In this document: positions 2,749 through 24,000 of the stretch, in pieces | How the letters are laid out: every line of letters begins with the position of its first letter | Position numbering within the stretch: position 1 is the first letter of the stretch | Assembly (NCBI GenBank): GCA_034660135.1 | Contig: JAYEIR010000165.1 | Location: forward strand, 16,291 to 40,290 | Direction: 5' to 3' | Source of the DNA: Thermodesulfobacteriota bacterium | GTDB lineage: Bacteria > Desulfobacterota > DSM-4660 > Desulfatiglandales > Desulfatiglandaceae | DNA: 24,000 nt | The notes under the pieces: generated by a model | The model's database searches: none | Told to the model about the DNA's origin: nothing | Seen by the model: the letters and a program-made list of their open reading frames with translations, nothing else | Made by a program: the position numbers and the translations under genes

Positions 2749-4455
<1,707 letters not shown>

Positions 4456-4589: not shown

Positions 4590-4626
4590 CCCTCTGTCGA
4601 AGCGGAAGCCATGATTAGAATTGCTG
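4590..4626 (+). repeat. Dispersed intergenic element, copy 2 (CCCTCTGTC..GGAAGCCATGATTAGAATTGCTG)
   Basis: Same family as 1780-1823. It lies between the groEL terminator and the epimerase gene. Confidence 0.85.
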
Positions 4627-7470: not shown

Positions 7471-7523
7471 GGCAATTCTAATTTTAACCTCTATCTAAGT
7501 GGAAGACACAATTAGAATTGCTG
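7471..7523. repeat. Complete palindromic copy of the dispersed element (copy 3)
   Basis: GCAATTCTAATT (7472-7483) is the exact reverse complement of AATTAGAATTGC (7510-7521), with a 26-nt centre. The right half matches the family-1 copies. The left half, read on the - strand (AGAGGTTAAAATTAGAATTGCC), matches the family-2 copies at 8568-8590 and 23363-23385. Confidence 0.9.
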
Positions 7524-8553: not shown

Positions 8554-8590
8554 AGTTAGAAAGGTCTAAAGGTTAAAATTGGAATTGCTG
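8554..8590 (+). repeat. Dispersed intergenic element, copy 4 (..TTAGAAAGGTCTAAAGGTTAAAATTGGAATTGCTG)
   Basis: It matches 23347-23385 and the minus-strand arm of 7471-7523. It sits 18 nt upstream of a -35-like box. Confidence 0.85.
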
Positions 8591-8607
8591 TTACGTTAAA
8601 CTTTTGC

Positions 8608-14742: not shown

Positions 14743-16080
14743 ATGAAGTTTAGAGCTTCATTGATTCTCATATGTTCGGCCTTTTTCCTGTCTACAATTT
14801 ACCAAACGAGTGAGAGCTTTGCGCAAGGGACGAAGGTCTACACACTGGAAGACAGTATTGCAGAGGCCCTGGCAAATAACTGGTCTCTTAAGGCAAAGGA
14901 GGAAAAACTCAACGAAGCGGCCTTTGTCAAAGACCAGGCCAGGGCCGAATTCCTGCCCAAATTGAGCACGTCTTATGGTTATACCCTGTTGAGCAAAAAT
15001 TCGAGAATACTCAAAGCCAATATCCCTGGGATGGGGGATGAGCCAATCGAGGTAGCCGCCAAGAACAATTATCAGTGGAAAGGCACTGTGACCCAGCCCG
15101 TCTTTACCGGATTTGCCTTGAAAAGTTCTTATGAGCTTGCAAAACTCGGAGTTGACCAATCCCAGATGGAGCTTGATCTTGAAAGGCTTGACCTGATCTT
15201 TAGAGTCAAAGAGGCCTATTATGACATCCTGGAGGCGGATAAGGCCCTGGATGTGGCCGAGAAAGCCGTGGAATCCCTGGAATCTCATGCCAATACGGCG
15301 CGCAGTTTCTATGAAGTGGGTATGACTCCAATTAATGATCTCTTGAGGTCGGAAGTGGAGTTAGGTGACGCAAAGCAGGAGTTGGTAAAGGCTGAACACG
15401 ATGCTCGTATGGCCCGTTCCGTATTTAATACCATCTTGGCCAGACCGGTCAATGCACCTGCAGAGGTGGATGATAGACTGGTTTTTGTGCCGGAACGAGG
15501 GGATTTTCAAGATTACCTCCAAAAGGCCTTTACGAACCGCCCTGAAATGAAGCTCATGGAAATCAATATCCTTCAATCAGAGCAGCAGATAAGGCTGGCT
15601 AAAAGCAAATATTACCCGGAAGTATCGCTTCAATACGACTATATCAAGGCAGGGGATACGCCGAACGTCTCTGGCAGCGAATTTCACGAGGCAAGCAGTT
15701 GGGAGGCCGCTGCTGTCTGTTCATGGACTTTTTGGGAATGGGGAAAGACACATTACGCGGTAAAAGAGAAAGAAAGCATCAGAAAGCAACTGACCAAAAT
15801 CAAGGAAGATCTGGAGAATAAAATAAGGCTTGAATTGAAGCGGGCACTTTTAGTCCTGGAAGCGGCAGAAAAGAACATTCCCACTACAAAGAAAGCGGTT
15901 GAGCAGGGCGAGGAGAACTTACGCGTCAATGAGGAACGTTATCGTGCGCAGGTAACCACTTCCACCGAGGTCCTTGATGCCCAGAGGCTCCTGAGCCAGG
16001 CAAGAATGAACTACTACCATGCACTTTACGCCCACTACATGGCCAAGGCCGGATTGCAGTGGGCCATAGGGTCATATTAG
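14743..16080 (+). CDS. TolC-family outer-membrane efflux protein
   Basis: It has a signal peptide (MKFRASLILICSAFFLSTIYQTSESFAQ), a length of ~445 aa, two-fold repeated helical/coiled segments and a C-terminal Y..Y..A.A.L..A.G pattern typical of OEP/TolC proteins. This is a family-level call only. Confidence 0.8.
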   Translation: MKFRASLILICSAFFLSTIYQTSESFAQGTKVYTLEDSIAEALANNWSLKAKEEKLNEAAFVKDQARAEFLPKLSTSYGYTLLSKNSRILKANIPGMGDEPIEVAAKNNYQWKGTVTQPVFTGFALKSSYELAKLGVDQSQMELDLERLDLIFRVKEAYYDILEADKALDVAEKAVESLESHANTARSFYEVGMTPINDLLRSEVELGDAKQELVKAEHDARMARSVFNTILARPVNAPAEVDDRLVFVPERGDFQDYLQKAFTNRPEMKLMEINILQSEQQIRLAKSKYYPEVSLQYDYIKAGDTPNVSGSEFHEASSWEAAAVCSWTFWEWGKTHYAVKEKESIRKQLTKIKEDLENKIRLELKRALLVLEAAEKNIPTTKKAVEQGEENLRVNEERYRAQVTTSTEVLDAQRLLSQARMNYYHALYAHYMAKAGLQWAIGSY

Positions 16081-16237
16081 TACCTTATTTCCAGGTTTTC
16101 TGTCATGAAAAACAAGAAAATCTTTAACAGGTCGAGCAGTCGAGTGGCGAAGCTTGAAACTCGAAACCGGAGGTTTAAAGCCCAGAGTCCGACACCCGAC
16201 AACCAATAACTGATAACTGATAACTGATAACTGATAA
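16077..16237 (+). repeat. ~160-nt intergenic repeat, copy A (partner 23137-23286)
   Basis: It aligns end to end with copy B. There are 2 mismatches in the first 60 nt, then identical blocks of 31 and 24 nt. The only other differences are indels of whole 7-8-nt micro-repeat units. Confidence 0.95.
16207..16237 (+). repeat. TAACTGA heptamer direct repeat, 4 full units plus TAA
   Basis: TAACTGA occurs at 16207, 16214, 16221 and 16228, followed by TAA. The array ends 26 nt upstream of the ftsE ATG. Confidence 0.97.
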
Positions 16238-16263
16238 AGGTTTTTTAAGAGAATAGCATAGGA

Positions 16264-16920
16264 ATGATACAGTTATTTCACGTTTTTCGAAATTTCGGTT
16301 CTAATGTCGCCTTGAGTGATATGGACTTGATAGTTGGCAGGGGCGAGTTTGTTTTTGTGACAGGACCCAGCGGCGCAGGAAAGACGACGCTGCTCAGACT
16401 GATCTTTGGTACTGAAAAACCTACAAGTGGTCACATATTAATCAACGGTATCAACCTCAACCGCATCAGTCGATCAAAACTCGATTTACTGCGCCGGGGT
16501 ATAGGTTTTGTTTTTCAGGACTTCAAATTATTGCCCAGGAAGACGATCTCTGAAAATGTGGCACTTGCTCTCGAGGTGACCGGCATGCGCCGGAGCTTTA
16601 TCCGAAAAAAAACCCACCAGTCGCTGAGGTTGGTGGGACTGGCAGAAAAGGAGAATGCCTTCCCCCTTTCTCTGTCCGGCGGGGAGCAGCAAAGGGTGGC
16701 TATTGCCAGGGCCATTGTGAACGACCCCATGATTCTTCTCGCCGATGAACCCACAGGAAACCTGGATTCGAGTCTCACAAAGGACATAATGGTACTTTTC
16801 AGAAGCATCAACCTGAAAGGCGCCACTGTGGTTGTTGCCACACACAGCCAGGAACTCCTCAGAGAAACAGGACAAAGGACAATTTCTTTGAACAAGGGAA
16901 GAATTGTCGGTGAAAAATGA
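16264..16920 (+). CDS. ftsE: Cell-division ABC transporter ATP-binding protein FtsE
   Basis: It has Walker A (GPSGAGKTT), the ABC signature (LSGGEQQRVAIARA) and Walker B (ILLADEPTGNLD). It is ~218 aa and translationally coupled to ftsX through an ATGA overlap. Confidence 0.9.
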   Translation: MIQLFHVFRNFGSNVALSDMDLIVGRGEFVFVTGPSGAGKTTLLRLIFGTEKPTSGHILINGINLNRISRSKLDLLRRGIGFVFQDFKLLPRKTISENVALALEVTGMRRSFIRKKTHQSLRLVGLAEKENAFPLSLSGGEQQRVAIARAIVNDPMILLADEPTGNLDSSLTKDIMVLFRSINLKGATVVVATHSQELLRETGQRTISLNKGRIVGEK

Positions 16921-17828
16921 GATTCAGGCTCTGTTGCTATTTCATCAAACAGGCATTGATAAATGTGATCAGCAACCGGGTTGTTCATGTCATCTGCCTC
17001 GGCACCATGGTCATATCAATGCTCATGTTGGCTGCTTTTCTTCTCCTGTTTGTCAACCTTAACTCATGGCTTCAGGAATGTGGGCACTCTTTGTCCATAT
17101 CTGTTTACCTCCAAGATGGAATCAGTAAAAACACAACGAATAGAATCGCCTCTGCCATCAAAGACCTGCCGGCTGTTGAAATAAAGAGCTTTGTTTCCAA
17201 AGATTCAGCATTAAAGGATCTGAAAAGATTTTTGGGGGCTCAGGCAGGCCTTATTGAAGGCCTGTCCAACAACCCGCTTCCAGCCTCTTTTGAGCTGGTT
17301 TTCAGGGATGTGGAAGGCCAACACTCAGATCTTCAAGAAATAAAAGGAGACCTCGAAAAAATTGAGGGCGTTGACGAAGTTCAGTACAGCAAAGAGAGAC
17401 TTAAACAGTTTGAAGGTCTATCAAGCATTGTCAGGACGTTCGGGCTTGTTGTTGGAGGCCTTCTTTGCACTGGAGTCCTCTTCATTGTCACCAATACGAT
17501 AAAACTGACCATCTATTCACGTCGACATGAAATTGAAATCCTGAAACTCGTTGGAGCCACTGATTGGTTTGTCAAGATACCTTTTCTGTTGGAAGGGGCG
17601 ATACAGGGGGTTTCAAGCGGGGCCCTGGCCCTTTTGATCCTTTTTTTCGCATATTCTTTGCTCTGCGCTGAAAAGCTGCATTTCTTCACCATTGCTGTGC
17701 TGGAATTTACGTTCCTGCCCCAGGAATATATTTTTATGATCTTTTTCTTGAGCGTCGCATTAGGATTGCTTGGCAGTTTTATTGCCACAGGCCGCTTTAT
17801 CTCAATAAGCCGTTTTTTTGACTTATGA
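16917..17828 (+). CDS. ftsX: Cell-division permease-like protein FtsX
   Basis: It overlaps ftsE by 4 nt. It has one N-terminal TM segment, a ~100-aa periplasmic loop and three C-terminal TM segments, which is the FtsX topology. The start of the C-terminal block, IEILKLVGATDWF, is FtsX-like. Confidence 0.85.
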   Translation: MRFRLCCYFIKQALINVISNRVVHVICLGTMVISMLMLAAFLLLFVNLNSWLQECGHSLSISVYLQDGISKNTTNRIASAIKDLPAVEIKSFVSKDSALKDLKRFLGAQAGLIEGLSNNPLPASFELVFRDVEGQHSDLQEIKGDLEKIEGVDEVQYSKERLKQFEGLSSIVRTFGLVVGGLLCTGVLFIVTNTIKLTIYSRRHEIEILKLVGATDWFVKIPFLLEGAIQGVSSGALALLILFFAYSLLCAEKLHFFTIAVLEFTFLPQEYIFMIFFLSVALGLLGSFIATGRFISISRFFDL

Positions 17829-18021
17829 TAGAGGCAGTCGAATGACAACAGGTCTGATTTCAGACAGCCTCCAAGTTCCATGTTCCAGACCCGCCTGCCT
17901 CGCCTGTCATGTACGGAACGGGCATATCCCAAGAGGTCGGCAATGGAGGGCAGGTTTGTGGGGATGTGGAAGCAGTCGATTTTCCCATACAAAACGTTTA
18001 CAAAATGATGTGATAAGAATG

Positions 18022-18053
18022 CAACCTTTGAACCTCTGAACCTTTGAACCCGT
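18022..18053 (+). repeat. Tandem 8-mer (GAACCYYT-like) x4, immediately upstream of envC
   Basis: The units are CAACCTTT, GAACCTCT, GAACCTTT and GAACCCGT at 18022-18053. The envC ATG is at 18066. Confidence 0.9.
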
Positions 18054-18065
18054 GATCGGTTACAC

Positions 18066-19292
18066 ATGTCCTTGCTTATAGATAATTGCCGCCCAACGAC
18101 TCGACTACTAAAACTGATATCAGGCCTCACCCTGATACTGTTCACCCTGCTTGCTGTCCCTTCCAATGCCGCTTCTGATGATGGATTAGAAACAAAGAAA
18201 GATCAGATAACCACAATCGAATTAAATCTCTCGACAGAAAAAGAAAAGCTTGACTCATTTGACTGTCAGGAAAAGGGGCTGATTTCCAGGTTGGCTGATT
18301 TTGAACAGGATGTAGCTGACACAAGACGCACTGTGCAGGAAATAGAGAGAAAGATCAGTCTTGCGAAGATTGCAATCAAGAATTCAAAGGCAAGGCTGGC
18401 AGATCTCAAGAAATCAAAAAAAGAAGCAGAGGCCCGGCTGGCGAGAAGGCTCGTTACATTATATAAATATGGCAGAAAGGGGCATATAAAGATCCTGCTT
18501 TATGCGGCAGACCTGGAAGAATTCTGGCACAGGATGAAATACCTCAAGGTCATTATGGCAGAAGATCAGGAAGAGCTATTCAGGCTGAGCAAAGAAGAAA
18601 GCCGGTACAGAGAGGAGATTTCGCGGGTCAAAGACCAGCTCTCTGAAGACGAGGCTATTAAGAACAAAGAAAATGTGCGACTGATATCTCTACGAAAAGA
18701 GCTTGAAAAAAAAGTCATTCGTCTCATGAAAATCCATAAAGAAAAGGAATTCTATGAGACATCAGTGAAAGAACTGGGGCTGGCAAGCCAAAACCTCAAG
18801 CAAGCCCTTGCAAAAATTGAAAAAAAGGACGATTATAGAGTTATACTTCCTTCTTGTTTTGCAGACTCCAAAGGCCGATTACCTTTTCCGGTCAAAGGGA
18901 GGGCAATTAGGCCTGATGAACTTTCTGCGTTTGCGAGGTTGGGTCTTCACAAAGGTATCTTTATTGATGGCACATCTGACGCCGGAGTAAAGGCCATTTT
19001 TCCGGGAAGAGTCGATTTCTCAGGACATCTCAAGGGCTATGGACAGATTATAATAATTAATCACGGTTCACGCTTTTTTACCATTTCAGCACTCCTCTCC
19101 GAAAGAAAGAAGAAAAAGGGAGATATGGTGAAAGCTGGAACAGTGATCGGATTGGCAGGTGGAAATAGACCTGCAAAAAGACAAATGCTCTATTTTGAAA
19201 TCAGAAGAGGCGGGGAAAACCTGGATCCTTTAGCGTGGATAGAGGTACATAGTCCACAGGGTAAGTGCTCCCTCCCGACAACCAAGAACTAA
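18066..19292 (+). CDS. envC: EnvC-like murein hydrolase activator (coiled coil plus degenerate M23/LytM domain)
   Basis: It has a signal peptide and a long coiled-coil region. The C-terminal LytM-like domain (HKGIFIDGTSDAGVKAIFPGRV, GYGQIIIINHG, MLYFEIRRGGENLDPLAWI) resembles E. coli EnvC as I recall it (SLYFEIRRQGQAVNP). The catalytic HxH motif is replaced by LYF. It lies downstream of ftsEX. Confidence 0.78.
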   Translation: MSLLIDNCRPTTRLLKLISGLTLILFTLLAVPSNAASDDGLETKKDQITTIELNLSTEKEKLDSFDCQEKGLISRLADFEQDVADTRRTVQEIERKISLAKIAIKNSKARLADLKKSKKEAEARLARRLVTLYKYGRKGHIKILLYAADLEEFWHRMKYLKVIMAEDQEELFRLSKEESRYREEISRVKDQLSEDEAIKNKENVRLISLRKELEKKVIRLMKIHKEKEFYETSVKELGLASQNLKQALAKIEKKDDYRVILPSCFADSKGRLPFPVKGRAIRPDELSAFARLGLHKGIFIDGTSDAGVKAIFPGRVDFSGHLKGYGQIIIINHGSRFFTISALLSERKKKKGDMVKAGTVIGLAGGNRPAKRQMLYFEIRRGGENLDPLAWIEVHSPQGKCSLPTTKN

Positions 19293-19309
19293 TAACACAG
19301 GAATTCATA

Positions 19310-21146: not shown

Positions 21147-21179
21147 GTAGTGTCCGTCCAGAAATGAGATAGTTTTCGC

Positions 21180-21275
21180 AAGGTCAAGGAAAATGAGGAT
21201 TTTAACCACAGGAATATATTGAATATTTCGAGGATTAAAATCCGAATCTAACACAGAGATTGCGGAAAATAGCCA
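21180..21275 (+). repeat. ~95-nt repeat element (family C), copy B
   Basis: It aligns with 2635-2730. It contains a perfect 9-bp inverted repeat, GGATTTTAA (21198-21206) and TTAAAATCC (21234-21242). Confidence 0.8.
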
Positions 21276-21285
21276 TTTATGGATG

Positions 21286-21443
21286 GGCACTAAGTAGTCT
21301 CTGAACGAAAACCTCGAAATGAAAACGAACACAACATCAATCATGAGGCTTTACTGAGTTGGGATTGATTCCATTAATCCAAAACCTAAAATCCAAAATC
21401 CAAAATCGTGCCTGAACAGGGTTTTCGTTCAGGCACTAAGTAG
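21286..21443. mobile_element. MITE-like unit: 132-nt core with 13-bp terminal inverted repeats flanked by 12-nt direct repeats
   Basis: The direct repeat GGCACTAAGTAG lies at 21286-21297 and 21432-21443. The inverted repeats are CTGAACGAAAACC (21301-21313) and GGTTTTCGTTCAG (21420-21432). No ORF is present. The right end also folds on itself as GTGCCTGAAC-AGGGTTTTC-GTTCAGGCAC (21408-21436). Confidence 0.5.
21381..21408 (+). repeat. Tandem heptamer AAAATCC-like x4 (AAAACCT, AAAATCC, AAAATCC, AAAATCG)
   Basis: This is a direct reading. The array lies inside the MITE-like unit, 45 nt upstream of the DUF2752 gene ATG. Confidence 0.9.
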
Positions 21444-21929: not shown

Positions 21930-21995
21930 TGACCGGGGCCTGTCTCGTATGCCGCGAATTATTGAGCTGTTACCTTTTTTCACAAAACTCAATTG

Positions 21996-23090
21996 TTAAC
22001 TGTCTGATCCGCCATTTGCCAGCATCATTCCAATAACAGCGCACTCCAGACCAAACGGCAGATAGCCCGCGTAACCTAAAATTGGCATCTCGAAGATCTT
22101 ATATCGTTCCACAAAAGGTATTGCATACCCCCATTTGGCTAAGCTGTAGTAATTCCACATCTCCCAGAAGAACCCACAAAACAGGGCAGCCAGGGCAGAT
22201 GAGACAGCCATGCGCCAGTCACCGTGAGTGATATCCTGAAGTACATGGTGCTCTCCCAGCAGGGTCTGGAGGGATACGATGATCAGGACAGGAGAAACCC
22301 AGACCAGCGGGAAAAGATAGTCCGGCCAGACACCTATGAACACTAAGCCGGCGCCGGATGCAACCAAAACAACCCATGCCAGGCCTGTAGGTCGAGGAAA
22401 TTCGATCGGGAAAAAGTTCCCGAATCCTTTTTCGAACCAGGAAAAACCGAGTATCAATTCGCGCATTCCCAGAACCGCGGGAAGGACTGTTGAATAGCAC
22501 AAGGTCGCATACCAGAAATATTCCGAGGGACTGAAAAGAACACCGGCATAGTACCAGTTCTGAACAAACCGGTTCAGGTATTCAAAAAACCACCAGAAAG
22601 CCGCACTTGCTGGAAAAAGCAAAAGGAAAATACCTGGTCGATCCACCATCATGCAGTGCCCGTCTCTTCGATAGACCAGGGCATTAATGAACAGAATCAA
22701 AGAGAACCAAAGAGGCGTAAATGTATGTGGCTGAAACCTCTCAAACCAGCTGAAACGTGTCCAGGCCAATATCCAGGCGAGAACTCCCATTGCAATTCCG
22801 ACCCATCCCCACCAGGGAAACCGAAAGCGACTCGAACGCCGCACCTTAAGCCGGCTGATAGAGCGTATTGCTTTTAAACTCAGGGGAAACGCTACAGCGA
22901 GGATGAAAATCCCACAACCTGCAAATGCAAGCCACGAGAAAGGGGCATGTTGCACATATCTCGTCTCAGGCGGGAACTCAAGGTACCTGCTCACCGGAAG
23001 GCCTTTCAGAAAGACTCCAGATAGAGGAAGCCCTATCAACATCCCTGTTAGAATACAAAATTTTAGAAAAAAGCTTTTCATATTGCTCAA
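21996..23090 (-). CDS. Hypothetical polytopic membrane protein (364 aa), aromatic/Trp-rich
   Basis: This is a long ORF with ~9-10 hydrophobic segments. It has recurrent W/F/Y motifs (FWWFFEYLNRFVQNWYY, FFWEMWNYYSLAKWGY, KIFEMPILGYAGYLPFG). I recognise no family. Confidence 0.7.
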   Translation of the reverse strand: MSNMKSFFLKFCILTGMLIGLPLSGVFLKGLPVSRYLEFPPETRYVQHAPFSWLAFAGCGIFILAVAFPLSLKAIRSISRLKVRRSSRFRFPWWGWVGIAMGVLAWILAWTRFSWFERFQPHTFTPLWFSLILFINALVYRRDGHCMMVDRPGIFLLLFPASAAFWWFFEYLNRFVQNWYYAGVLFSPSEYFWYATLCYSTVLPAVLGMRELILGFSWFEKGFGNFFPIEFPRPTGLAWVVLVASGAGLVFIGVWPDYLFPLVWVSPVLIIVSLQTLLGEHHVLQDITHGDWRMAVSSALAALFCGFFWEMWNYYSLAKWGYAIPFVERYKIFEMPILGYAGYLPFGLECAVIGMMLANGGSDS

Positions 23091-23136
23091 ATTTTCGATT
23101 CAAAGCAAACAGGAAAAAGAGACCCCTCTGTTACTG

Positions 23137-23286
23137 TTAGCACCTTATTTCCAAGTTTTCTGTCATGAAAAACAAGAAAATCTTTAACAGGTCGAGTAAT
23201 CGAGCAGTCGAGTGGCGAAGCTTGAAACTCGAAACTGGAGGTTTAAAGCCCAGAGTCCGATAACCAATAACTGATAACTGATAACC
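23137..23286 (+). repeat. ~150-nt intergenic repeat, copy B (partner 16077-16237), ending in TAACTGA x2 plus TAACC
   Basis: See copy A. TAACTGA lies at 23268 and 23275. The array is followed by the palindrome CCGTTAACGG at 23285-23294. Confidence 0.95.
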
Positions 23287-23346
23287 GTTAACGGCCTTCA
23301 GCGTATTTTAGCTTGTCTTAGGCACTACTCTGGGTTGCGTATGGCC

Positions 23347-23385
23347 CACCTTAGTAAGGGCTAAAGGTTAAAATTAGAATTGCTG
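23347..23385 (+). repeat. Dispersed intergenic element, copy 6 (CCACCTTAGTAAGGGCTAAAGGTTAAAATTAGAATTGCTG)
   Basis: It matches 8554-8590 and the minus-strand arm of 7471-7523. It lies 79 nt upstream of the orn start. Confidence 0.85.
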
Positions 23386-23463
23386 TGAAACCTGTATTTC
23401 ACTGGCAAATCAGTTTACCTTTATGCTATATTTAAAGTTTTCAATACATACAAGGAGAATATC

Positions 23464-24000
23464 GTGAAGAACCATTTGATCTGGATAGACTTGGAAATGA
23501 CCGGCCTTGATCCTGAAAAACACGTCATTCTTGAAATCGCCTCCATTGTGACCGATGACCGCCTTGATATTGTTGCTGAAGGGCCTGATATCGCCATCAC
23601 CTATCCTGAACATGTCTTTTCTGCAATGGAGGACTGGAGCGCTACGCATCATCAATCATCCGGTCTCCTGGATCGCTCAAGGGACTCATCCTATGACTGC
23701 TATAGTGCAGAGATGGAAACACTGAAGTTTTTGTCTGCATATTCCAAAAAGGGTCAATCCCCTCTTTGCGGTAATTCTATTTGCCAGGATCGGAGGTTCC
23801 TTATAAAGCATATGCCAAAGCTGGAAGGACTCTTGCATTACCGCAATATTGACGTAAGCTCCATAAAAGAGCTTGTAAAAAGATGGTACCCGGCCCTTCC
23901 CCGTTTCAAAAAACAGGAATCCCATCTCGCCATGAATGACATCAGGGAATCCATAATGGAGCTGAGATATTATCACAAAAAGGCATTTTTGATCAGTTAG
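23464..24000 (+). CDS. orn: Oligoribonuclease (DEDDh 3'-5' exoribonuclease)
   Basis: It contains LIWIDLEMTGLDP, PLCGNSICQDRRFL, HYRNIDVSSIKEL and SHLAMNDIRESIMELRYY. It uses a GTG start with AAGGAGAA upstream. The stop TAG occupies the last three bases of the window. Confidence 0.92.
   Translation: MKNHLIWIDLEMTGLDPEKHVILEIASIVTDDRLDIVAEGPDIAITYPEHVFSAMEDWSATHHQSSGLLDRSRDSSYDCYSAEMETLKFLSAYSKKGQSPLCGNSICQDRRFLIKHMPKLEGLLHYRNIDVSSIKELVKRWYPALPRFKKQESHLAMNDIRESIMELRYYHKKAFLIS

Follow-up and report, generated by a model that had tools for sequence, protein, structure and literature searches.

We analysed the TAACTGA heptamer arrays in a 24,000-nucleotide (nt) stretch of contig JAYEIR010000165.1 from a Thermodesulfobacteriota bacterium (the window), one of which lies just ahead of the cell-division gene ftsE. 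Neither array stands alone: each forms the 3′ portion of a degenerate heptad tract, which in turn lies within a mosaic element of ~170–215 nt. Comparisons of strains show that this element is multi-copy and insertion-polymorphic, and that its heptads are hypervariable at the shared ftsE site. We consider it probable that the arrays are a slippage-prone heptad microsatellite on a small, non-coding, non-autonomous mosaic mobile element in a Desulfobacterales lineage. The species cluster examined amounts to ~31 kb and consists of two deep lineages plus short contigs. Lineage A is the window; lineage B is contigs L002, L003, L144 and L145, which are 99.8–99.97% identical to one another and ~95% identical to the window.

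TAACTGA arrays within a mosaic element

An earlier note on this DNA had reported two TAACTGA arrays, and both are confirmed by the sequence, by shuffling and by Tandem Repeats Finder: (TAACTGA)x4 plus TAA at 16207–16237, with 26 nt between it and the ftsE ATG at 16264, and (TAACTGA)x2 plus TAACC at 23268–23286, each lying between open reading frames (ORFs). The doublet TAACTGATAACTGA occurs four times on the plus strand against 0.02 expected (0 of 100 dinucleotide-preserving shuffles reached four), and the single heptamer occurs eight times in the window against 2.56 expected. Perfect period-7 arrays of at least two units number seven in the window, compared with a mean of 1.2 and a maximum of 4 in 200 first-order Markov simulations; among these seven, TAACTGA is the sole unit recurring at two sites. 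Tandem Repeats Finder also calls AATCCAA and TTAGCTG heptad arrays, and TAACTGA x2 is found at two sites in lineage B as well. Because the ftsE-side tract is present in at least seven independent assemblies (ENA ERZ25073599, ERZ25746724, ERZ26661670 and ERZ23499000; Logan SRR26901930, SRR22302353 and SRR18936872), the arrays are not assembly artefacts.

Alignment revealed the two arrays to be the tails of two element copies, 90–94% identical to each other. Their parts follow in a fixed order: a 45-nt 5′ module, two or three GTCGAGYA octamers, a ~42-nt middle module and the heptad tract, which in copy 2 is followed by a ~63-nt 3′ part ending CCCACCTTAG; copy 1 is entirely without a 3′ module. 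The earlier suggestion that the heptamer is linked to a larger modular element was therefore right, and the element is present or absent between ~95% identical strains. The features concerned, all on the plus strand, are as follows.

16077–16080, plus strand: TTAG junction directly 5′ of copy 1; its TAG (16078–16080) is the stop codon of the OEP efflux gene at 14743–16080.
16081–16125, plus strand: 5′ module of copy 1, TACCTTATTTCCAGGTTTTCTGTCATGAAAAACAAGAAAATC; 94% identical to 23141–23185, nhmmer profile E 4e-16.
16131–16146, plus strand: octamer pair GTCGAGCA GTCGAGTG; by alignment, three units in copy 2 and in lineage-B copy c3.
16147–16188, plus strand: middle module GCGAAGCTTGAAACTCGAAACCGGAGGTTTAAAGCCCAGAGT, specific to this species cluster.
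16189–16237, plus strand: heptad tract of seven units, CCGACAC CCGACAA CCAATAA (CTGATAA)x4, called by Tandem Repeats Finder.
16238–16263, plus strand: spacer between tract and ftsE, AGGTTTTTTAAGAGAATAGCATAGGA; AGGA borders the ATG, and there is AAGAGA 11 nt upstream.
16264–16920, plus strand: ftsE, downstream of tract 1, then ftsX at 16917–17828.
19275–19295, plus strand: degenerate solo tract CCGACAA CCAAGAA CTAATAA, matching the copy-1 tract at 21 of 23 positions.
21151–21443, plus strand: second heptad-bearing insertion type, 293 nt, absent from lineage B.
23137–23140, plus strand: TTAG, left junction of copy 2, from filled versus empty site.
23141–23354, plus strand: 214-nt element copy 2, inserted here and missing from lineage B (BLAST gap and alignment).
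23257–23291, plus strand: copy 2 tract, CCGATAA CCAATAA CTGATAA CTGATAA CCGTTAA, called by Tandem Repeats Finder.

TAACTGA is CTGATAA in another register, and it is the most amplified unit of a degenerate tract whose general unit is TAACYRA (CYRATAA in the tract register). CCGACAC, CCGACAG, CCGATAA, CCAATAA and CCGTTAA are also repeated in tracts, with up to nine non-CTGATAA units in one of them. Copy 2 has all parts in order, namely 5′ module, three octamers, middle module, heptad tract and a 3′ part made up of the CCGTTAACGG palindrome, the AGGCACTA motif and the GGGTTGCG...CCCACCTTAG end; its TAACTGA array ends 177 nt before the start of orn (RNase T family) at 23464. The 26-nt spacer at 16238–16263 lacks a well-spaced Shine-Dalgarno sequence. 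The M23 peptidase gene (18066–19292) takes its final codons and its TAA stop from the solo tract at 19275–19295. In the 293-nt insert an AATCCAA-type tract (21376–21407) is followed by a hairpin, CCTGAAC...GTTCAGG, and the end CACTAAGTAG; the 5′ part of this insert recurs at 2634–2713, in an unusually long groES–groEL spacer.

Other identities for the element were tried and set aside. A small encoded protein (MKNKK...) was rejected: copies differ in octamer number, which puts the short ORF beginning in the 5′ module into different frames, and the ORFs found in other metagenome-assembled genomes (MAGs) bear no relation to it. A structured RNA, or a carrier of promoters or terminators, was likewise rejected. 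Only the 23S and 5S ribosomal RNAs (rRNAs) pass the Rfam 15 gathering score in the window, and no match overlaps the element at E values up to 5; its fold is no better than that of shuffled sequences (z of −1.55 as DNA and 0.02 as RNA), and simple scans of the element detected no sigma-70-like promoter or terminator. Terminal inverted repeats (TIRs) were not found either: the end CACCTTATTTCC... does not recur inverted at the other end, ...GGCCCACCTTAG, and the two form no pair in the inverted-repeat list. No transposase is encoded in the window or in the related contigs.

Insertion polymorphism and the ftsE site

Lineages A and B differ mainly by intergenic insertions. L002, L144 and L145 lack copy 2 and have a clean empty site in its place, ...CTGTTACAGTTAG/TAAGGGCTAAAGG (the slash marks the junction, CAGTTAG/TAAGGGC). 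The filled site in the window reads ...CTGTTACTGTTAG/CACCTT...CCCACCTTAG/TAAGGGC, with CTGTTAG as its left flank, and BLAST places the gap at window positions 23130–23351 versus L002 positions 16754–16768. The 293-nt insert at 21151–21443 is likewise window-only, the empty site in lineage B being AATTAG/CTTTCTGG (AATTAG/CTTTC). Lineage B in turn has two insertions of its own. One is an inverted element copy between the M23 peptidase and TraB genes, directly after the CTA of the solo tract, with a 10-unit tract that holds a single CTGATAA (CCGACAC CCGACAG CCGACAG CCGATAA CCGATAA CCAATAA CCGATAA CCAATAA CTGATAA CCGTTAA). The other is a tract-bearing insert of ~230 nt between asnS and a ferredoxin gene, which has different 5′ modules and the tract ...TAACCGA TAACAAA TAACTGA TAACTGA TAACCAA. 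Short Logan contigs begin inside the element, as expected of a repeat.

In the clean filled/empty pairs the insert follows TTAG, and its own end is TAG preceded by T, G or A. For copy 2, TTAG both flanks the insert on the left and forms its final four bases, which could be a 3–4-base-pair (bp) duplication or a target plus the element's own end; the 293-nt insert follows the same pattern with GTAG/AAGTAG, again readable as a duplication or as a target plus its own end.

Three of the tracts are separated from the next start codon by 26 nt, 177 nt and ~240 nt; of the other two, one is in inverted orientation and one runs over a stop codon. The position just upstream of start codons, which the earlier note cited for the Beggiatoaceae arrays, is seen here in one tract out of five, and five sites do not make a distribution; these scattered positions fit passive carriage better than a function linked to start codons. 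Sets that overlap gene ends are also a class in the survey of TAACTGA repeats by MacGregor (2015; PMC4679880).

The ftsE site is the only one common to all strains compared, and it exists in four alleles. The window has (CTGATAA)4; L001 has CTGATAA CCGTTAA CTGATAA; lineage B has (CTGATAA)2 after CCAACAC CCGATAA CCAATAA; and L215 has (CTGATAA)2 after CCGACGC CCGACAC CCAATAA ACAATAA. A further lineage, D (L219), has the end of an unrelated TIR-bearing miniature inverted-repeat transposable element (MITE) in place of the tract, 20 nt ahead of the ftsE ATG, and it keeps the spacer from GAGAATAG onward upstream of ftsE. We had entertained an ancestral 7-nt junction between the OEP gene and ftsE and dropped it, because lineage D keeps GAGAATAG... 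beside the MITE end and a distant relative has a 96-nt spacer.

That relative, L217 (64% FtsX identity), keeps the order OEP–ftsE–ftsX–M23, and its spacer (3252–3347) has a GTGCCTAAA-type 9-mer array with an inverted TTTAGTCAC; read as its reverse complement, the AGGCACTA motif of the element's 3′ part is similar to this 9-mer unit. Downstream, the 237-nt spacer between ftsX and the M23 peptidase gene (17829–18065) carries (AACCTYTG)x3.5 at 18023–18050. L215 (94% FtsX identity) has only 1.5 AACCTYTG units and lacks ~190 nt of this spacer, and in the more distant L216 and L217 the genes overlap at the ftsX–M23 junction.

Three further repeat types were seen in the window and related contigs. 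A true TIR-MITE, very unlike the heptad element, lies at L144 3070–3316 (TIRs GTAWCWGCTCAATAAG, 8-bp duplication GCGGAAGC), between groEL and an epimerase gene in lineage B, and is absent from the window at 4609; a terminus of it also occurs near 21960–21990 (window ~21942–22007) and at L219 1–30, abutting the ftsE leader. A motif ending AATTAGAATTGCTG, preceded by GGAAGCCAT or AAAGGTTAAA, occurs at 1797–1823, 4601–4626, 7472–7523 (as a palindromic pair), 8567–8591 and 23362–23386, each copy lying between some tens and ~200 nt upstream of a gene start. The motif may be a site associated with a promoter or a regulator, or else one more mosaic module, and several polymorphic insertions lie inside or adjoin it; a sigma-54 reading was rejected on inspection, as its GG-to-GC spacing is wrong. 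Finally, a perfect 9-mer array, (AGTTTATTG)x4.6, lies at 765–805, between the 3′ end of the 23S rRNA (1–719) and the 5S rRNA (855–971).

Relatives of the element and of the heptamer

On sequence, the host is an uncultured Desulfobacterales lineage and falls in none of the groups named in 2015 (PMC4679880), as its MAG label and its valyl-tRNA synthetase (ValRS) relatives indicate. GroEL, ValRS and FtsE of the window match exactly the proteins of an NCBI MAG labelled 'Thermodesulfobacteriota bacterium', on a 40,415-nt contig, and the best named ValRS relatives, at 75–78% identity, are MAGs labelled Desulfobacterales, Desulfobacteraceae or 'Deltaproteobacteria'. The earlier note had suggested a lineage outside those recorded for the heptamer and a gene content more typical of Desulfobacterota; the ValRS relatives, none of them on the 2015 list, agree with the former, and the L002 orthologues, which carry Pfam Cytochrom_CIII, HcyBio (COG1900) and Fer4 domains, with the latter. 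Its citation was also accurate: MacGregor (2015; PMC4679880) describes 169 TAACTGA sets in BOGUAY and others in Thiocystis, 15 Cyanobacteria and 5 Bacteroidetes. The words 'Desulf' and 'Deltaproteobacteria' are absent from the text of that paper, and in our literature search no paper naming TAACTGA together with Beggiatoaceae concerned Desulfobacterota. The claim that the distribution of exactly the same heptamer is extended stands as regards the new lineage and is weakened in that TAACTGA is here one unit type within a degenerate tract of related heptamers.

A scan of a genome collection with 20 nt of the 5′ module did not bring up the source species. Seven Desulfobacterota MAG contigs matched, labelled Desulfobacteraceae, Desulfatiglandales, Desulfohalobiaceae and Desulfobulbaceae, and an nhmmer profile of the 5′ module also matches MAGs of these four labels. 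The module starts, with its junction, as TTAG/TACCTTATTTCCAGGTTTTCTGTCATGAAAAACAAGAA; a further ~20 nt that the query did not require are conserved too (TTAG/TRCCTTATTTCCAGG), and TTAG precedes the module in nine of nine aligned copies from several Desulfobacterota MAGs. Behind the 5′ module, the interiors in other MAGs are unrelated to that of the window element. Several relatives end TTGG(G)TTGCGG-loop-CCGC-TTAG, that is, TTGGGTTGCGG...CCGC-TTAG. Relatives have a G+C-rich 3′ hairpin (GCGGGCGAAGCCCGC and similar); at the 5′ end there is only a weak A+T-rich stem. In a Desulfohalobiaceae MAG, GTGAACC x3 stands directly before this conserved 3′ hairpin end.

The 5′ module had no match in the IMG/VR scan, and copy 2 had none among PLSDB plasmids. 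In ~50 kb of ValRS relatives (78% identity) we found no tracts and no 5′ module, and gene order is lost after nadC. A metagenome scan with the middle module GGCGAAGCTTNAAACTCGAAA was discarded, all 14 of its 14 matches being an unrelated coding gene (N=C). Beside one 5′ module copy, in the Desulfatiglandales chromosome (L117), lies a 332-amino-acid ORF (656–1654) that by eye resembles Rpn/YhgA-like putative transposases, with a partial second copy at 3001–3516.

The heptamer itself is found more widely. (TAACTGA)x3 occurs in 107 IMG/VR stretches (L005–L111) with G+C contents of 0.28 to 0.63, against 12 for (TAACCGA)x3, 14 for the shuffled (ATATCAG)x3 and 43 for (AATCCAA)x3; heptad arrays in general are not rare in IMG/VR. 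Near-identical contexts there differ in TAACTGA unit number (3, 4 or 5), and in 70 of 79 distinct contexts the array is flanked by related units, mostly NNACTGA, as opposed to the TAACYRA variants here. TAACTGA thus occurs more widely than the 2015 survey implied, so that its presence in one more lineage is less surprising. Many of the IMG/VR arrays lie upstream of an opposite-strand gene, whose leader would read TCAGTTA. The (TAACCGA)x3 matches are units of ~140 nt whose arms are inverted arrays, TAACCGATAACCGATAACCGATTG ... CAATCGGTTATCGGTTATCGGTTA (L147 4829–4967; L151 2007–2129 and 13918–14040; L152 937–1076; L153 2503–2642); they occur several per contig, in contigs of differing G+C content, and may be small elements with heptad termini or paired operators.

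No element modules stand beside (TAACTGA)x3 arrays in the IMG/VR contigs, and 5′ module copies in other Desulfobacterota carry other interiors, such as GTGAACC x3. Within these searches, the earlier proposal that the element might be a vehicle for the spread of the heptamer thus found no support. For the identity with the Beggiatoaceae and cyanobacterial heptamer, convergence on a favoured unit or an old shared heptad pool is more likely than recent transfer on the element; the 2015 paper saw no evident mechanism by which TAACTGA repeats would be transferred (PMC4679880).

Weighing a proposed mobile microsatellite against other readings

If the arrays are a microsatellite on a mobile element, their unit number would change by replication slippage or unequal exchange. 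Mutated, presumably older units (CCGACAC, CCGACAA, CCAATAA) are found at the 5′ side of the tract, and identical CTGATAA units, on this reading the most recently amplified, at the 3′ side. The element would be moved in trans by an enzyme encoded outside the window, possibly with TTAG as target. The ftsE tract would ride in a transcribed leader, where it may be tolerated or mildly useful because it is unstructured, A/U-rich and supplies stop codons in all three frames, a property of TAACTGA repeats that MacGregor remarked on (PMC4679880). Slippage has precedent: heptanucleotides rank first among long simple repeats in the majority of genomes, and polymerase slippage was suggested to favour 7-nt units (Mrazek et al. 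2007, as summarised in PMC4679880).

Several points weigh against this account. TAACTGA x3 is 2.5 to 9 times commoner than the three control heptamers in IMG/VR, so something favours TAACTGA and neutral slippage alone is insufficient. The ftsE-side copy is kept forward and near the start codon in three diverged lineages (A, B and C), which fits a selected function too. No transposase, TIRs or convincing terminal hairpins were found in the window and related contigs. Presence and absence could in principle reflect precise deletion instead of insertion, and the comparisons rest on the ~31 kb of two deep lineages and short contigs described above.

A possible but improbable alternative is that the heptads are a cis-regulatory array, as in MacGregor's model, with the units in the ftsE leader binding an S1-, Csp- or CsrA-like protein, the candidates named for TAACTGA (PMC4679880), or forming a ribosome standby site; the element would only have delivered them. 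The forward orientation 26 nt before the ftsE ATG agrees with this, as does the retention of the site in lineages A, B and C. So does the lack of a well-spaced Shine-Dalgarno sequence, with AGGA abutting the ATG; canonical sites for ribosome binding are seldom found in MacGregor's TAACTGA regions too (PMC4679880). The tract region is mostly unpaired in the predicted fold, the distant relative with the OEP–ftsE–ftsX–M23 order has tandem 9-mers in the same spacer, and according to a Nostoc preprint, regulator-dependent reporter activity changes when other heptamer repeats are deleted. On the other side, just one of five tracts is near a start, three tract-bearing inserts are strain-specific, and perfect units at ftsE vary from four to one plus one. 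In the fourth lineage a MITE end takes the tract's place 20 nt before the ftsE ATG. The flanking variants, TAACYRA here and mostly NNACTGA elsewhere, argue against one shared binding specificity.

We regard as unlikely a broader reading in which YAACYGA/TAACYRA tracts are the signature module of widespread tiny mosaic mobile elements rather than host regulatory sites, these being the first TAACTGA arrays caught moving. If true, it would supply the missing mechanism for the patchy occurrence of the heptamer in Beggiatoaceae, Cyanobacteria, Bacteroidota and Desulfobacterota, and the ~140-nt inverted (TAACCGA)x3 units of IMG/VR would be relatives with heptad termini.

Less probable still is that the heptads are the element's own subterminal sites for a mobilising protein, comparable to the subterminal repeats of some transposons or to heptad iterons, which small DNA-binding proteins bind cooperatively. 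Differing element types do place a heptad tract just inside the 3′ terminal module: CTGATAA-type in copies 1–3, AATCCAA in 21151–21443 and GTGAACC x3 in the Desulfohalobiaceae MAG. The inverted IMG/VR units also indicate that heptads of this family can form termini or operator-like pairs. However, unit sequence and number vary among copies each of which appears to have moved, copy 1 is without any 3′ module, and the element contains no inverted partner array.

A contingency locus, in which unit number switches or tunes expression of ftsEX or orn, is very unlikely. Unit number does differ at ftsE between close strains, and the AGAT tract of Moraxella UspA2 is a precedent for repeats in a 5′ untranslated region tuning expression (cited in PMC4679880). 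Yet ftsEX serves housekeeping cell division and would be an atypical phase-variable target, unit numbers are low (1–4), 7-nt steps shift no reading frame here, and a simple promoter scan indicates that promoter spacing is not involved. As for chance or assembly artefact, all that speaks for it is that short-read assembly can in general get tandem-repeat lengths wrong, and four doublets against 0.02 expected, with the tract in at least seven independent assemblies, effectively refute it, exact unit counts aside.

Known small elements offer partial parallels to the one described here. Pneumococcal BOX elements (boxA–boxB(n)–boxC) and enterobacterial bacterial interspersed mosaic elements (BIMEs) are small, non-coding, dispersed and intergenic, have conserved ends with a variable tandem middle, and are often co-transcribed with adjacent genes. 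They share no sequence similarity with our element, whose unit is 7 nt rather than ~45 nt, which has an apparent TTAG junction rule, and whose end modules are shared across several Desulfobacterota labels with unrelated interiors. Cyanobacterial short tandemly repeated repetitive (STRR) sequences are intergenic 7-nt tandem repeats into which small dispersed repeats of Nostoc insert, giving mosaic nesting in genomes that abound in tiny mobile modules; their unit sequences and lineage differ, and here we see no evidence of modules inserting into the tract. The apparent insertion of our element beside a fixed tetranucleotide resembles how IS200/IS605-type elements choose their targets. Palindrome-associated transposable elements (PATEs, IS200/IS605 derivatives) and MITEs resemble our element in being 150–300 nt long, non-coding, multi-copy and polymorphic for presence. 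Unlike a classical MITE, the heptad element has no TIRs. TTAG before the 5′ module (9 of 9) and at empty-site ends fits the oriented insertion of a PATE 3′ of a fixed tetra- or pentanucleotide with no duplication, a pattern that cannot here be told from a duplication, whereas a convincing subterminal hairpin pair is lacking and no partner transposase was seen in the window or related contigs.

MacGregor's TAACTGA sets (PMC4679880) are alike in the identical heptamer, in tandem runs of 2–4, in their intergenic position and in sometimes being split by related 7-mers; one set here is, like those, forward and close to a start codon without a well-spaced ribosome-binding site. They differ in that the phylum here is Desulfobacterota and that the sets are embedded in longer TAACYRA tracts, heptamers related to TAACTGA being seldom repeated in BOGUAY (PMC4679880). 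They also differ in that ours sit inside an insertion-polymorphic, multi-module element and mostly not beside start codons. Long simple sequence repeats (LSSRs) with 5–11-nt units (Mrazek et al. 2007, via PMC4679880) are similarly short, mostly non-coding and strain-variable in number, consistent with slippage; they were described as free-standing, whereas the tract here is built into a dispersed element as a fixed module, and entire tract-bearing segments are gained or lost.

What TAACTGA repeats do, and why their distribution is so scattered, has been a question since 2015; in one new lineage, this locus shows such arrays riding on an element that is gained or lost between close strains. The heptamer repeat itself was known; what is new is a carrier element with presence/absence polymorphism, together with a new phylum. 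The arrays are not yet evidence of a shared regulatory code, and nearness to one start codon should not be taken as evidence of regulation. Unit number and sequence also evolve fast. The question 'regulatory code or selfish DNA?' becomes testable with existing metagenomes, and the 45-nt 5′ module, common to several Desulfobacterota labels, offers a handle for finding the mobilising enzyme.

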